Shown: positions 19,686 through 57,830 of the stretch, in pieces | Layout: each line of letters starts with the position of its first letter | Position numbering within the stretch: position 1 is the first letter of the stretch | NCBI GenBank assembly: GCA_951406725.2 | Contig: OX597816.1 | Location: 179,366,001-179,430,000 of the forward strand | Direction of reading: 5' to 3' | Source: Octopus vulgaris | Lineage: Eukaryota | Length of the DNA stretch: 64,000 nt | Made by a program: the position numbers and the translations under genes | The notes under the pieces: model-generated | Databases searched by the model: none | What the model saw: the letters and a program-made list of their open reading frames with translations, nothing else | What the model was told of the DNA's origin: nothing

Positions 19686-19899
19686 CGAAATACCGAAGTC
19701 CTAAGTCCTCAGCTTTATTTCCTTCTGTTCTGTAATTATAATGTTTTTTACTTCATTGAATTTATTTACTCAAACTATGTTTATCTAAACTCACTTGATA
19801 CATCTATCCTTACATCCTCTCATCAGTCCCAATGCATCTTGATCCCCAAACCTTATACTAAATAATACCTAATCATTCTTTTCTAGCACTACTCATTTA

Positions 19900-20973
19900 T
19901 TGAATAAACAGGCTGAATCCCATTCGAAGTCTCCTATTGACGCACAGCCACCCTTGATTTCTTCCCTAAAGACTTCCAAACTGAAGGGATCAAAATCGAA
20001 GCGGCCAAAGAAGGCGAAAGGACTGGCGGTTGTTTCCACTCATGATCGTATCTGTGTGGATTCTTCCTCATCTGCCATTTCGGTCCCGGAGGTTCCCCAA
20101 CCTGAATTGAAGAGCGTAGACTCAAACCCACCTGAAGACCATTGTTCTCCCAAAAAGAAGAAACGTAGTCAAAACTCCAGTGGCGCAGATTTAGCTGCGA
20201 AACCTGCTCAAGATAAAATCTGTTTGGATTCTCCCTCATTTGTCCTTCCCATCAATGCCATTGCTCAACCAATTCTGAATGATCTTGATGTGAGTTCATC
20301 TGGGGAGTGGTGCTCCTCCAAAACGAAGAAGTGGCAGTGCAGTTCCATACCAGGCCGGAAAGTTATGACCACTAAACCCATTCTGATCGACCCCAAATGC
20401 CTACATAAGTCTGATGGCTACAAAACCGCCCTTTCTAAATTATCCGATGAAGAATCGAATGCTGCAGTTCACAGTAGAGAACAGAAAGACCATTTTGCCC
20501 ACTCAAGATCAGCAATCATTTATGGTAAAGCTGAATCCACTGGTGATACAGGCATAAACCACCTAAAAGATGGCATAAATTTTGTTTCTGTTTTAGTTGG
20601 AGAATTGTTCTCTGTCAACAAAAATGTCAGTATCCATAAGGTCGCTTGCCTAGGAAGATTCCAAGTGAACTCAACCTCTGACACTAGACCACACCCAATA
20701 AGAGTAATCTTTTCTTCCGATCAGGAGGCTTCAACCTTTCTGAACAGAGCTCAGAAGCATGCCTGGGAGGACCCCAATATGGGTTTTCGCGAGGAATACT
20801 CACTGAGAGAGAGAATTCGCCGGAGAAACCTAATATCCGAACTGAAGATGAGAAAACAGATGGGAGAGAAGGGTTTACACATCCAAGATGGACAAATAAT
20901 CAAGTCCTACCTCTGGTCGATTGCTGTAGTGCTGACAGGGAAAGTGAATCAAGGGCGAATCGAAGTAAAGTAG
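19900..20973 (+). CDS. CR1-like LINE ORF1 (uninterrupted, probably 5'-truncated)
   Basis: 357-codon ORF with a typical CR1/L2 ORF1 C-terminus (SAIIYGKAES...LGR...RPHPIRVIF...ERIRRRNLISELK), directly upstream of ORF2. Confidence 0.8.
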   Translation: MNKQAESHSKSPIDAQPPLISSLKTSKLKGSKSKRPKKAKGLAVVSTHDRICVDSSSSAISVPEVPQPELKSVDSNPPEDHCSPKKKKRSQNSSGADLAAKPAQDKICLDSPSFVLPINAIAQPILNDLDVSSSGEWCSSKTKKWQCSSIPGRKVMTTKPILIDPKCLHKSDGYKTALSKLSDEESNAAVHSREQKDHFAHSRSAIIYGKAESTGDTGINHLKDGINFVSVLVGELFSVNKNVSIHKVACLGRFQVNSTSDTRPHPIRVIFSSDQEASTFLNRAQKHAWEDPNMGFREEYSLRERIRRRNLISELKMRKQMGEKGLHIQDGQIIKSYLWSIAVVLTGKVNQGRIEVK

Positions 20974-22900
20974 ATACCCCCGACAACGATGCTATCTCTG
21001 ATACCCCTTATTCTGCTTGTTCCCTCATTCCCGCCTCTCAAACTTCACAGCTCAGCATCGTCTATACCAACTAATGCTCCTTATTTCCAAAGTTCAGCAA
21101 ATTATTTACACTGGCCATGCGTGATTCCCCAGATGTGATAGCTATCACTGAGACTTGGCTGACTCCAGCAGTAAAGGACTCGGAAATCCACCTACAGGGC
21201 TACACCCTCTTCAGATGTGACAGAGAAAAAAGGTGAGGTGGAGGTGTTGCTGTGTATGTTAAATCTGATCTCAAACTGTCCAGCAATATTCTACCCACTA
21301 ATGCTCAACCTACAACAAAATTCGATGCCGTCTATTGCAAGCTGAGCCTATCCGGGTTTTGCCTGCCCGTGTTAGCTGTCTACAGGCCGCCTCTTGCCGA
21401 TCCCCAGGACGATACTCATTTACTCGAAGCGATAAGATTCGTTTCAGCTTCTCTTGACTGTTTGATATTAGGAGATTTCAACGCTCCCACGATCGACTGG
21501 CCCACATCAATTTGTACATCATCTTCCAGGCCCTTCTTGACATGGCTGAAGATTGTTTGCTATCGCAACATGTTGAATATCCGACAAGGCATCAGTCTGG
21601 GCAGCAGCCATCTATGCGGGATCTGGTATTCTCCCGCTATCCAAGATCAGTGTCAGGCTTATCTGTGTACGCCCCTCTTGCCAAGAGTGACCACATGGTC
21701 CTGAAGTTCGCCATGCACACAACTTTTTCTACGCCCACGACTACTGCGCTGCCACGTAGAGTCTTCTCTGCAATCAATCTTGAAATTCTAACCGAGGCTT
21801 CCGCGCTTCTGGACAGGCGATCCCTAATGACGATGTCCTCAGTTGACGAACTATGGTCGTCCCTCAAAGCATATGTAATCTGGTTGACTGACCAAGCAGT
21901 TCCCGTTGGGCTTCCCAAGAAGAAGAAACACAAGCCCTGGGTGATGAAGAAGGTTAAACAAGAACTTCGACTCAGAGATATTGCTTGGGCTGAATTCAAA
22001 AATCTAGATTCGACTGCAGCTTTTGAGGTGTACAAAACTCAACGAGACCGAGCCGTGAAAATTGAAAAGGAAGAACGCTTCAGATATGAATACAGAATCG
22101 CGGCAAACGCCAGTTGCAATCCAAAAACCTTCTTTGCCCATGTCCAATGGAATTCCCATTTGAACAACCAAATTGCAATGTTGGTAGACTCAACAGGCAT
22201 ATCGATTGAGGACCCTTATCAGCAGAGTCAGTTATTTGCTGAGGCTTTTTCAACTATTTTCAAACAAGATGATGGTTGTGAACCCCCTCCATTTGATAGC
22301 TCGGTACCTCCAATGCCTAGATTGGTCATCAATCAGGATAAAGTCGAACGTGTTATTCAAGGCCTCAATGTCAACAAGGGTCATGGCCCTGACGGCATAC
22401 ACCCACAGCTTATCAAAGCGTTGGCTCCGGTCATCTGCGAACCTTTAACACTTCTATTCAATGTCATTGGCGATGGGTGTTATACCTGCAGACTGGAGAA
22501 CAGCGTTAATCTGCCCAATTTTCAAGAAAGGGAGCCGTGAAGACCTGCTTAACTACCGACCGGTTTCCCTTACTTCAATAATCAGCAAGATGTTCAAAAC
22601 CATTCTTAAGAAAAGTATGTTGCTCCACCTCCAAAACACAGCCTCTATCTCTGATTCCCAAGACAGCTTCGTGCTGAAGAGATCATGCTTGACCAACTTA
22701 CTGGTAATGGAAGAATTGGTGACGCATATCCTGGATGATGGTGATGCTGTTGACATCGTTTTATTGGACTTTGCCAAAGCTTTTGACTCGGTAAACCACC
22801 GCCTATTACATGTCAAGCTTCAAGCATATAGTTTCCATCCAGATATTGTATGATGGGTTGGTGCCTTCCTCTCAGATCGCTCCTTCCAAGTCCAAGTCCA
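19901..22900 (+). mobile_element. CR1-clade LINE, truncated at both ends, ORF2 pseudogenised
   Basis: APE motifs (DVIAITETWL, GGGVAVYVK, VYRPP, LGDFN, SDH) and RT motifs (GPDGIHP, NYRPVSLTS, LDFAKAFDSVNH). Stops and frameshifts present. GC-richer than the flanks. tcatttat direct repeat at 19893 and 22901. Confidence 0.95.
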
Positions 22901-42508: not shown

Positions 42509-42556
<48 letters not shown>

Positions 42557-42607
42557 AGATGTACTTGCATAGCAAGTGACCTGATCTGAGATAGTGTGCT
42601 GAAACGA

Positions 42608-42841
42608 AAACAATTGCAGCGTGGAAGGTGTTTATAAGCCATTTAAGAAACACACAAAAACCGTTAGATTCACTTCATCATTTAAATTTAATTTGCCAAA
42701 ATATTTTCGTCGCTTTGAGACCGCGACATGTTCACTAACAAAATTAAATCTAAATGGCAAATTAGATTTAAATGATGAAGTGAATCTAATGGTTTTTGTG
42801 TGTTTCTTAAATGGCTTATAAACACCTTCCATGCTACAATT

Positions 42842-42845
<4 letters not shown>
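42608..42845. mobile_element. Palindromic non-autonomous element (91-bp arms) next to (TA)n; extra arm copy at 42905-42950
   Basis: 42608-42698 is nearly the reverse complement of 42755-42845. Confidence 0.9.
42692..42742 (-). ncRNA. Minimal type I hammerhead motif with G3-C8 covariation
   Basis: tttgtta GTGAACA t gtcgc ggtctcaaa gcgac GAAA atat TT tggcaaa: 7-bp stem I, 5-bp stem II, palindromic AATATT stem III. Confidence 0.7.
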
Positions 42846-42903
<58 letters not shown>

Positions 42904-42947
42904 ATGTGTTTCTTAAATGGCTTATAAACACATTCCCCGCTGCAATT

Positions 42948-43006
<59 letters not shown>

Positions 43007-49796: not shown

Positions 49797-52100
49797 CATC
49801 ATCATCATTTAATGTCCATTCTCCATGCTAGCATGGGTTGGACTGTTCGACAGGGGATCTGGGAAGCCAGAAGGCTGCCCCAGGCTCCAGTCTGATCTGG
49901 CAGTGTTTCTACAGCTGGATGCCCTTCCTAACGCCAACCACTCCGAGAGTGTAGTGGGTGCTTTTTACGTGCCAGGTGAGGCTGGCAACGGCCACGATTG
50001 GATTGGTGCTTTTTACGTGCCACCGGCACAGAAGCCAGTCTAGGTGCCGCTGGCATTGGCCACGTTTGGATGGTACTTTTTACATGCCAGTGGCACGGAA
50101 GCCAGTCTAGGCGGCGCTGGCATCGGCCACGTTCAGATGGTGCTTTTTATGTGCCACCGGCACAGGGACCACAACTGCAGTTTCCATTGATCTTTGATGT
50201 TGGTGTCCTTGACTCAATGGATCTCTTCAAGCACAGGGTCAAAACAGTGTTTCTTTACTTGCCACCTGCACAGGAGTCAGTCCAGCAGCCCTGGAAACTG
50301 CCGGGTGCCAGTCATAGGATTGTCTCAACAGGTCTTCGTGTGTCCAAGGAAGGAAAGGCATGCATAAGTGGGCTGGCTACATCCCTGGCAAGGGACACAG
50401 GATGGACTCACTTGTTCTGCCGGGTCTTCTCACGTACAGCATATTTCCAAAGGTCTCGGGCACTAGTCATTGCCTCGGTGAGGCCTAATGTTCGAAGGTC
50501 GTGCTTCACCACCTCGTCCCAGGTTTTCCTGGGTCTGCCTCTTCCACGGGTTCCCTCAACTGCTAGGGATTGGCACTTTTTCACACACCTATCTTCATCC
50601 ATTCTTGCCACATGACCATACCAGTATAGCCCTCTCTCTTGCACACCACAACTGATGCTTCTTAGGTCCAACTTCTCTCTCAAGGTACTTACACTCTGTC
50701 GAATATGAACACTGACATTACACATCCATCGGAGCATACTGGCTTCATTCCTCATGATGTTACGCATGTCCTCAGCAGTCAGGCCCATGTTTCACTGCCA
50801 TGTAGCATGGCTGTTTGTACACATGCATCATACAGTCTGCCTTTTACTCTGAGCGAGAGGCCTTTTGTCACCAGCAGGGGTAAGAGCTCTCTGAACTTTG
50901 CCCAGGCTATTCTTACTCTAGCAGTTACACTTTCAGCACACCCACCCCCGCTACTGACTTGGTCACCTAGGTAACGGAAGCTATCAACTACTTCTAGTTT
51001 TTCCCCCTGGAAAGTGACGGAAGATGTTTTCTGCAGATTTTCAGTGTTTATTGCTCCTGAGCATCTGCCTCATACAATAACTATCTTCCCAGTTCGCCTT
51101 CCTTTGACATTGCTGCACCTCTTAAGTGTCCATAGCTTACACTGGGTACATCTTATAGAGTTTCTACCTACGCCTTTTCTATAGATCGAGCAGGTGTTTG
51201 TGGTTTGTCTACCTTCCTACTTATTAGGACTTTTGTTTTAGTTAGGTTGGTTTGTCTACCTTCCTACTTATTAGGACTTTTGTTTTAGTTAGGTTGACTC
51301 TAAGACCCTTCGATTCTAATCCTTCCTTCCACACCTGAAACTTCTCCTCCTGTTCTGATAGTGACTCAGCAATTAGAGCAAGATCGTCAGCGTAGAGGAG
51401 CTCCCAGAGACATCCTGTCTTGAATTCCTCTGTAATTGCCTGGAGGACTATGATAAATAGGAGGGGGCTGAGGACTGAACCCTGGTGGACCCCAACCTCT
51501 ACCTTGAATTCTTCAGTGTACATGTTGCCAACCCTTACCTTACTTACAGCGTACCTGTACATGGCTTGCACAGCTCTCACTAGCCATTCATCTATCCCTA
51601 ATTTCCTCATTGACCACCAGATAAGGGATCGGGGGACCCTGTCAAAGGCTTTCTCCATGTCAACAAAAGCCAGGTACAGGGGCTTATCTTTGGCTAGGTA
51701 TTTTTCCTGCAGCTGTCTCACCAGGAATATGGCATCAGTGGTGCTTTTCCCTGGCACGAACCCAAACTGCATCTCGTCCAAGTTGACTCTCTCCCTAATC
51801 AATTGGGCTATGACCCTCTCCGTAACCTTCATTACCTGATCCAACAGCTTCATACCTCTGTAATTATTTGTATCTAGGGCGTCACCTTTACCTTTGTTGA
51901 CTATTATGTCACCTTTACCAGTTGACTATTATGCTGCTACACCAGTCATTGGGTATGACTCCTTCGTGTATCACCTGGTTAACTATACAAGTGACTAGGC
52001 TATAGCTGACACTGCTAGATATTTTGAGCATCTCTGCAGTAATTCCTGATGGGCCTGGGGCTTTCCCTATCTTCATGCTTCTAATTGCCTTTACTACCAA
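49797..52100 (-). mobile_element. 5'-truncated RTE-clade LINE (RT, 3'UTR with tandem repeats, (GAT)n tail)
   Basis: KAPGPSGI, QFGFVPGKSTTDAIF, AFVDMEKAFDRV, GVHQGSVLSPLLF, LYADD, WYGHVARM, GRGRPRKTW. Frameshifts arise from small duplications. Confidence 0.97.
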
Positions 52101-52556: not shown

Positions 52557-52814
52557 TAGGGAAAATGAGAATGGTATACATTAATAAAATGATGTTGTAG
52601 CACTTACCTAGCACTCCTAATTGTTTAGATCACCTGTGAACTAAACCCCCATACTTTGTATATATATATACACACACACATATATACATATATATATGTA
52701 TATATATATAATAAAAATAAATTCATTAATTAATTCATAAAAATGTATAAATTTTGATTGATTTTTGTTTCTTCCTTTCTTTTTTCTTCAACAGAGCTGC
52801 TGTAAAACATCAAT

Positions 52815-53612
52815 ATGAAGCTTGAATATTTCTATGATAAAAAACTTATTCCACTTTCTGACAAAAACAAATTAACCAAATGTAACCAAATCACTACTCG
52901 GGTAATCTTTATCTTCATCCTCTTTGCTGGATTATCACAAATTGGTCTTGGAATAGGACTCTTACTCTCATGCCGCAGCAATCTAGAAAATATATCCTGT
53001 GCCTTCTCTTTAAAGGCCCATCCATGCACTGGATTAGTGATACCAACCTACCTTGGTTGTTTGGTTATTTGTATTGCTCTATTTGGATTTGGATTTCTTG
53101 GACGCCGAGCTACTGCTATCTTACTAGCTATTGCTATGACTGCAGAAATCTACTTTGGTTTAATGTCAATCTATGCTGAACCAGTTTTATTTACTGACTA
53201 TTTTCGAGTTTTTAATTCAGTCCAAATATGCCCCCAGAATTCCTCCAGCCCAGATAATCTTATAAAGTGCTGGAATGGCATCACACAATTATACCCATAT
53301 TGTTTTATCTACAGAAATTTAATAAGGACAGACTGTATGCAAGGATATGATCTTTATTTCACACAATTTAATGAAACTTTATCATCAACAAACATTGAAC
53401 CATGTGTCACTGATATTAGCATGGCTGTGAGTTCCATTTATACAGGTTATCGATATTTTGCAGGTCCTCTTATGTTGCTAAATGCCACGCTCTGTCTTTT
53501 ACTAGTTCCAGGTTTAGATTTCTTATACCAACAAAATATAGAACTGAATGAATCTCATGTGGTTTCAGGACCAAAAGAACTTCAAAGACAAAATATTTCT
53601 TCATCTGTATGA
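52815..53612 (+). CDS. Divergent tetraspanin-like four-pass membrane protein, single coding exon (265 aa)
   Basis: Three N-terminal TM helices (G-rich TM2 LGCLVICIALFGF; Glu in TM3 AEI), a Cys-rich large loop (CWNGITQLYPYC...EPC) and TM4. Strong acceptor tttttcttcaacag at 52794; AATAAA at 53671. Confidence 0.8.
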   Translation: MKLEYFYDKKLIPLSDKNKLTKCNQITTRVIFIFILFAGLSQIGLGIGLLLSCRSNLENISCAFSLKAHPCTGLVIPTYLGCLVICIALFGFGFLGRRATAILLAIAMTAEIYFGLMSIYAEPVLFTDYFRVFNSVQICPQNSSSPDNLIKCWNGITQLYPYCFIYRNLIRTDCMQGYDLYFTQFNETLSSTNIEPCVTDISMAVSSIYTGYRYFAGPLMLLNATLCLLLVPGLDFLYQQNIELNESHVVSGPKELQRQNISSSV

Positions 53613-56959: not shown

Positions 56960-57289
56960 AATATGATAATATAAATTATAATCCTTCTTTAGGTATGTGA
57001 TGAGACATCAAGAAGTTATGGTATTCATAATTTTCTCTGGGACAAACATTTTTGAATTAGAAATGAAAAATATAACTCTTTGACTTAAGTTTGTCATTCA
57101 ATATAATTTCTGACAAAAAGTGTTTGTTAATTAGACTAAAAAGCTACGTATGAAGAGCAGTGTTGAATATCTTGCTTAATATCTCATTAAAGGTAATGGG
57201 TCATGAGACTTGATCTTTAGTCAAAATTATTAACAAATAAGAAAGAAAAAGAATAATAGTAACTTTTTACATAGGAATGGAGATTTTTT

Positions 57290-57830
57290 GTTTGGAAAAT
57301 GGGATCTGTGACATTAATGTTTTTTTTCAAGGGTACAAATGATACAAGTAAATTAATTGAAGTGGTTTCCAACTTGAGATATTTGGTTACACTTGGTTCC
57401 TCAAGAACCAACAGCAACATTACAAAGGTGGTTGAAGATAGTAATGATAATGGTAAGCGGATGTATAGAAACAGAACAGTTCTAAAAGAAACGAAAACAA
57501 TATTAAGAAACCATTCACATACAAACACTTTACTAATAGCTAAAGTTCCTTCATATGCAGTTGCAGGTGACATAAATTTATGAATAATTGATATTCTGTA
57601 TGATTTGAGGTGTAGTTCAACTTTGATAAGAGATCATACATGAGATAAAAAAATAAGAGATGGGTAACATTTCCACACAGAAAAGGATAAGATCACTAGG
57701 GGAAATGTAAATATGCCATTCACCTTTATCTCCTAAAAAGCCATTTAGGTGGGAAAAGCAGAACTGAAGAAGAATATAAGAGGATGGTCAGGAATATCAT
57801 AGAACTAAATAGAAAGAGTAGGATTAGAAA
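57290..57830 (+). mobile_element. Highly decayed RTE-like LINE fragment
   Basis: IEVVSNLRYLVTL resembles the RT7 motif (IE.V..F.YLGS); KETKTIL follows. Confidence 0.45.

Follow-up and report, generated by a model that had tools for sequence, protein, structure and literature searches.

We analysed a 64,000-nt stretch of the Octopus vulgaris genome (the window), in which a hammerhead ribozyme motif lies across one arm of an inverted repeat. We favour, with somewhat more confidence than doubt, a reading in which the 3' pseudo-LTR of a Penelope-like element (PLE), truncated at its 5' end, was inserted head to head into a TA microsatellite, and in which the short arm of the locus probably ends at the predicted cleavage site because the reverse transcriptase (RT) ran off a self-cleaved RNA. 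Positions in the repeat are numbered from that site, +1 being the first base after H17 and -1 being H17 itself. The anatomy of such elements is already known; judged from the sequence, what is unusual here is the G3-C8 core of the ribozyme together with a small but specific cleavage signal.

A G3-C8 hammerhead motif on the minus strand

The first-pass annotation had reported a GUGAACA core in which the C3-G8 pair is swapped for G3-C8, and exactly this core is present on the minus strand at 42735-42729, within a type I hammerhead. The elements of the motif are:

42692 to 42742, minus strand: type I hammerhead motif, assigned from the sequence and from G3 in 43/46 and C8 in 45/49 sampled arms of the family
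42742-42736 with 42698-42692, minus strand: stem I, 7 bp, including two G-U pairs
42728, minus strand: extra unpaired base U, directly after the core G3..A9 (42735-42729)
42727-42723 with 42713-42709, minus strand: stem II, 5 bp
42708-42705, minus strand: G12-A15.1 (GAAA)
42705-42700, minus strand: stem III, the palindrome AAUAUU
42699, minus strand: U17
Between 42699 and 42698, minus strand: predicted self-cleavage site, placed by numbering the sequence as a hammerhead; the 3' product would begin at 42698

At the level of the motif, three stems surround the core boxes, positions 3 and 8 form a Watson-Crick pair and the site is of the NUH type. The 75-nt fold has a z-score of -3.79, with part of a stem supplied by the neighbouring linker, which is itself element sequence. 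An Rfam scan gave no hammerhead match at E <= 1. A PDB sequence search gave 0 matches. In a read-through RNA of the window copy, native stem I has a predicted pair probability of 0.0; because native stem I is predicted not to form, a window copy transcribed through both arms is unlikely to be an active ribozyme.

The inverted arms and their junction

The two arms are separated by a short linker and lie between TA runs, with a third fragment further to the right:

42510 to 42553: (TA)n target microsatellite, left flank
42552 to 42745, minus strand: long arm, a 5'-truncated pseudo-LTR copy (-47..+147), ribozyme uncleaved, tailed; from blastn to a family copy and the linkage of the family to a PLE open reading frame (ORF)
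42552 to 42607, minus strand: tail (+92..+147), absent from the short arm; in the family, the 3' ends of arms fall into two clusters, at about +81..+96 and +143..+148
42744 to 42754: junction linker, 11 nt, made up of a re-copied +8..+17 palindrome, in which the private base of the short arm is mirrored, and one further base
42755 to 42845, plus strand: short inverted arm (+1..+91), tail-less, with a rare +21 base in common with the long arm
42845 to 42892: (TA)n target microsatellite, right flank
42905 to 42951, plus strand: third fragment (+45..+91), between TA runs

The inverted repeat (42608-42698 with 42755-42845) is 91 nt long and 96% complementary, and the long arm extends 56 nt past it, to 42552. 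Gap-free homology ends at 42755, which bears out the earlier claim that the 91-bp inverted arm starts at the predicted cleavage nucleotide, with the break at +1..+3 or at +1/+2 depending on the reading. The wider interval follows from a 2-nt overlap at the junction, since bases 1 and 2 of the short arm match the linker end, read as +19/+20, as well; the narrower interval applies if the linker is read as a snap-back. The linker at 42744-42753 is the exact inverse of +8..+17 of the short arm and includes a base found in 1/61 family arms; the two private bases, one in the linker and one in the short arm, each have that frequency. The rare +21 base common to both arms fits a single insertion event. 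On the simplest reading of the junction, synthesis of the short-arm cDNA stopped at +1/+2; this cDNA then folded back, was extended by 10 copied nt and became attached to the long arm at the stem I strand.

A second reading, which we consider clearly less probable although it deserves to be taken seriously, keeps the PLE origin and dispenses with cleavage: uncleaved RNA would have been copied, with a strand switch through stem I and an 18-nt slip via the shared dinucleotide giving an apparent +1 start, and the ribozyme may be inactive or irrelevant. The 2-nt overlap at the junction is in its favour, but it needs either two independent rare changes at mirror positions (each 1/61) or a later hairpin repair.

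A high-copy family with a conserved core

There are at least 4,076 exact 29-mer matches of the repeat, with 0 for the reversed control. The repeat is ~209 nt (-61..+148) and its copies are single or head to head; 40/64 sampled arms have an inverted partner, the 3' ends of family arms cluster near +91 and at +148, and in the head-to-head pairs among the loci mapped the tail is on one arm only. The G3-C8 core is family-wide, and the extra base after the core is usually G. When lineages were compared by their majority letters, 0/42 ribozyme structural positions differed, as against 5/9 in loop II (p = 5e-5); the comparison with the whole rest of the repeat (14/166 changed, of which 9/157 outside loop II) is non-significant (p = 0.078).

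Most short copies end at -61..-57. Thirteen loci (L065, L073, L165, L167, L179, L259, L269 and six more) reach upstream of -59, where a microsatellite-rich stretch is followed by a branch-point-like motif, a pyrimidine tract and an AG at -59. The stretch before -59 looks like a retained intron end that would set the usual 5' boundary.

Some variation surrounds the cleavage site. One subfamily (L254-L283) has a 2-nt insertion after +4 and makes up most of 198 matches; its stem I stays at 7 bp or falls to ~5. At L305 (C4:109037895) there are three adjacent A>G changes just past the site, possibly from RNA editing of the template. A sequencing-run search using the 3' half of the repeat only returned no RNA run among the holders listed; contigs that cover the repeat are present in four sequencing runs presumed to be RNA, and these contigs show neither ends nor strand.

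Linkage to a Penelope-like coding region

At two loci (L331 and L337) the end of a GIY-YIG ORF is joined to the repeat via a microsatellite-rich stretch; the Pfam match (E = 0.00065) is below the curated cut-off. Searching with the GIY-YIG coding-end protein yielded 4,050 candidates, 150 of them as scored matches. In a sister lineage, with 78% identity over 138 aa and open frames of up to 1,025 aa, Pfam places GIY-YIG above the cut-off at L359 (E = 1.8e-5); it assigns no family at L360 and no RT family at either locus. Assignment of the RT rests on motifs judged by eye plus Atlas clusters, the look-alike clusters for the sister-lineage ORF being RVT_1/GIY-YIG at 0.96. The G3-C8 motif also occurs ~1.1 kb downstream of the sister-lineage ORF. 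The PLE ORF carries C-x3-C-x2-C before the nuclease, and this cysteine linker suggests the Neptune clade. The long copies that were read for direct pseudo-LTRs on both sides of a full-length ORF are all 5'-truncated. Taking together the anatomy, the ORF linkage and the core shared with coding copies, we assign the window locus, on sequence grounds, to an endonuclease-bearing PLE (RT plus GIY-YIG), of which it is a pair of truncated pseudo-LTRs.

Two further candidates for a coding or complete element were set aside. A PLE ORF adjoining L267 is from another family: it has a canonical C3-G8 core of its own at the 3' end, where this repeat is absent. This ORF (466 aa, no Pfam match; L267:3-1400 on the minus strand, and L325) is separated from a copy by a TA run. 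At L169, what resembled a pseudo-LTR-ORF-pseudo-LTR unit is actually a local duplication.

An origin at the DNA level, in which the inverted repeat would be a MITE-like element or a later duplication made with no reverse transcription, is so improbable that we regard it as refuted. What suggested it is a composite -54/-34 head-to-head pair that has spread to ~29 of the first 85 loci (L038, L050-L055, L064 and ~22 more, on contig 1). However, those copies share flanks and ride inside another repeat, and we do not regard the pair as mobile in its own right; the insertion sits in this other, younger repeat and was amplified with it. Each of the remaining pairs has a junction of its own, and they show 5' truncation, an asymmetric tail and an upstream PLE ORF.

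Arm starts across the family

Arm starts were scored in a sample of 87 distinct arms from 100 listed places, reduced to 64 by dropping 23 composite arms. If, as the strong form of the earlier claim has it, the inverted arm were routinely copied from an RNA end made by self-cleavage, starts should gather at the site. They scatter: 53/64 begin at least 38 nt upstream (-38 or beyond) with the ribozyme intact, and 1/64 begins at -1..+3, this one being a stem I fold-back. The joins are also denser upstream of the site (141, 56 and 92 matches in three intervals, the middle one without the young lineage). The start of the window arm at +1 and a minor +1 class (below) speak for the routine use of a cleaved end, but as a general rule it is refuted and we give it very little credence. 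The claim of a cleavage footprint thus fails as a family rule; it is plausible for the window copy and for a small minority with blunt +1 junctions. Since most arms keep an uncleaved ribozyme and an inverted copy is usual for Penelope-like elements, the inverted repeat as such needs no cleavage.

Junctions near the site were then collected by pattern search, and the rows were sorted by eye from listings or printed loci. In the old lineage, double-mismatch patterns gave 35 matches at +1 genome-wide: 10 stem I fold-backs, 15 other inverted joins, 1 solo copy, 2 restarts, 2 deletions, 4 mutants and 1 unclear. Without stem I fold-backs there were 16 joins at +1, 18 at +8 (of 24 matches), 6 at +2 (of 10), 6 at -1 (of 9) and 5 at +19 (of 8). 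In the young lineage, 16 of 22 loci remained at +1 after 5 fold-backs and 1 mutant were dropped, against 9 joins of 15 matches at +2 and 14 loci of 18 matches at +8. The control at +3 (198 matches) was unused, being swamped by the 2-nt insertion subfamily. Plain truncations occur no more often at +1 than at +8.

Where the partner arm was near full length, 5/55 joins fell at +1 and 7/55 at +3 (Poisson p = 0.057); 4 of the 5 at +1 use a 2-nt microhomology, and in the youngest lineage 0/9 such joins were at +1. Microhomology and stems explain the junction hot spots. Stem I fold-backs (11 exact matches, and 10/35 of the matches at +1) yield +1 starts by construction, and stem II acts likewise, with fold-backs in 23/50 joins in the core. 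This behaviour of the stems, with the +8 joins being as frequent as those at +1, speaks for the copying of uncleaved RNA with a switch at stem I.

A minor junction class at +1

Thirty loci have both arms starting near the site. Thirteen are centred on +3 with 4 nt of microhomology, and these were not counted as evidence of cleavage because, although they fit a cleaved end, they carry that microhomology; 9 are centred on the stem III palindrome, a blunt join is centred on +1 in 4 and lies at -2 in 1, and the last 3 are of other kinds. The excess of blunt palindromes on +1 (4 against 1 at -2) has a binomial p of 0.0025, for a class defined after the data were seen. A fifth blunt +1 palindrome was found among 50 of 73 loci listed. 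All five are independent, as their flanks differ, and both lineages are represented. For comparison, one control set contained 1 blunt one-base-centre palindrome in 35 loci, and another, of 50 joins, contained 1 that was blunt and symmetric; the base of stem II had none, although there were 23 stem II fold-backs.

Tandem re-copying gave a similar picture. Among 16 tandem re-copies, 3 loci restart bluntly at +1 after +11; 7 more fit -3..+3, and 6 restart at -7 or upstream, one of these 6 being no true repeat. At L436 (C29:9192309) the +1..+11 unit occurs four times in tandem at the junction. At L420 (C7:24901928) at least one arm, and on one reading both, ends at +1, and the 11-nt unit is present two extra times, with two restarts at +1. 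At a further three loci (L223, L419 and L465) the arm ends at +1 and a short downstream stretch is then re-copied via 2-3 nt of microhomology. The tandem 11-nt units of L436 and L420 resemble repeat addition at a template end.

Both the blunt-palindrome and the blunt-restart class were set after the data had been seen and the numbers are small; the site itself was fixed beforehand. With that proviso, the rare junctions expected of a hard template end concentrate at +1, which suggests that this minor class arises from cleavage and that the motif sometimes cuts RNA during copying. A strand switch on uncleaved RNA leaves both the blunt palindromes and the repeated blunt restarts at +1 unexplained, and they have no stem II counterpart. 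The junction of the window copy resembles these rare junctions, and a cleaved template is for this reason plausible there too, by a narrow preference on our part.

Proposed mechanism

In the mechanism that we favour, run-off from a self-cleaved RNA, the element protein would nick both DNA strands and prime two cDNAs, the first at +148, where the tail ends, and the second at +91. Uncleaved RNA would be the template of the first cDNA, which would reach -47; the second would stop at +1/+2, fold back or realign, and re-copy ~10 nt before being linked, at the stem I strand, to the first. Across the family, uncleaved RNA would be the source of most insertions, with copying stopping near the splice-acceptor-like boundary at -59, and cleavage would be rare. 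Since stem III is a 6-nt palindrome, cleavage would need two RNAs (a dimer) or help from a protein, as has been considered for short stem III hammerheads (PMC4209133).

Several points weigh against a cleaved template. The long arm in the window crosses the site uncleaved, so that a cleaved template requires either two RNAs or an RNA cut between the two passes. The +1 position is also the inner edge of stem I and thus a structural boundary; the plain truncation counts have no unique +1 peak; and the conservation of structural positions relative to the rest of the repeat is non-significant, as given above. In the anole PLE, moreover, cleavage is reported to be dispensable in vitro, and no RNA-seq read is reported to have begun at the site (PMC11167929). 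A more elaborate version, which we put forward as speculation and think rather unlikely, is that the natural G3-C8 hammerhead acts on Penelope RNA in germ-line cells, cleaving it within the integration complex and possibly in trans between two RNAs. The RT, once at the cut end, would re-copy the terminal 11 nt repeatedly in a telomerase-like manner, and the genomic repeats would be fossils of this addition.

Comparison with known elements

Tailed and tail-less head-to-head pairs match the PLE anatomy described in PMC8557442, PMC3846280 and PMC11167929. Endonuclease-bearing PLEs (Penelope/Poseidon, Neptune and Nematis; PMC8557442, PMC3846280) share with the octopus family an RT followed by a C-terminal GIY-YIG domain, a hammerhead in the pseudo-LTR, an inverted, 5'-truncated head-to-head copy, a tail on one arm, microsatellite targets and an intron-like acceptor in the repeat. 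The octopus tail is 57 nt, whereas theirs are 30-40 nt, and the octopus core is G3-C8. Likewise, the minimal type I hammerheads of metazoan PLEs (PMC4209133) have the unpaired base between 9 and 10.1, the G10.1-C11.1 pair, a small palindromic helix III, and many solo and opposite-strand pairs. They differ in that a natural U3-A8 swap is found there (natural U3-A8 cores are also given in PMC3088659) and G3-C8 here, where in addition H17 is U, helix I is 7 bp and helix II is 5 bp.

The statement in the first-pass annotation that the double change preserves catalysis was too strong, as the literature reports partial rescue. In the papers that our searches returned, an engineered variant that gives partial rescue is the only form in which G3-C8 appears (PMC3884650, PMC8495972, PMC11167929), the last being the C3G/G8C change in the anole Poseidon element PAc; a natural case could be listed in Lunse et al. 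2017. The PAc in vitro system resembles what is proposed for the octopus family in that two RT start sites define the tail, and both strands are nicked and extended (PMC11167929). The dominant substrate there is uncleaved RNA, with no read reported to begin at the site, whereas a genomic minority appears to end there in octopus.

Metazoan non-LTR retrozymes (PMC7229834; bioRxiv 10.64898/2026.07.22.740005) likewise carry a type I hammerhead, within a short repeat that PLE enzymes mobilise. In contrast to these, the octopus repeat is the end of a coding element, with no separate non-autonomous unit, and none of the loci mapped has retrozyme-like head-to-tail monomer arrays bounded by cleavage sites.

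Our literature search returned no study of genomic junctions at the hammerhead sites of PLEs. With a pre-specified site and thousands of junctions, the family makes the cutting of PLE hammerheads in vivo, and its role in transposition, testable (cf. PMC8557442 and PMC11167929). It also supplies a high-copy natural G3-C8 core and, possibly, traces of template-end repeat addition by the closest retroelement relatives of telomerase.

Other features of the window

Elsewhere in the window, a degraded LINE at 19873-22853 has ORF1-like, AP-endonuclease-like and RT-like frames, and RTE-like reverse transcriptase fragments lie at 50408-51925, both judged by eye. On the plus strand at 52806-53612, a 268-aa open frame with several hydrophobic stretches is possibly a single-exon membrane protein gene. 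Finally, opposite-strand open frames of 102 and 138 aa at 57275-57633 are non-repetitive and may be an exon.
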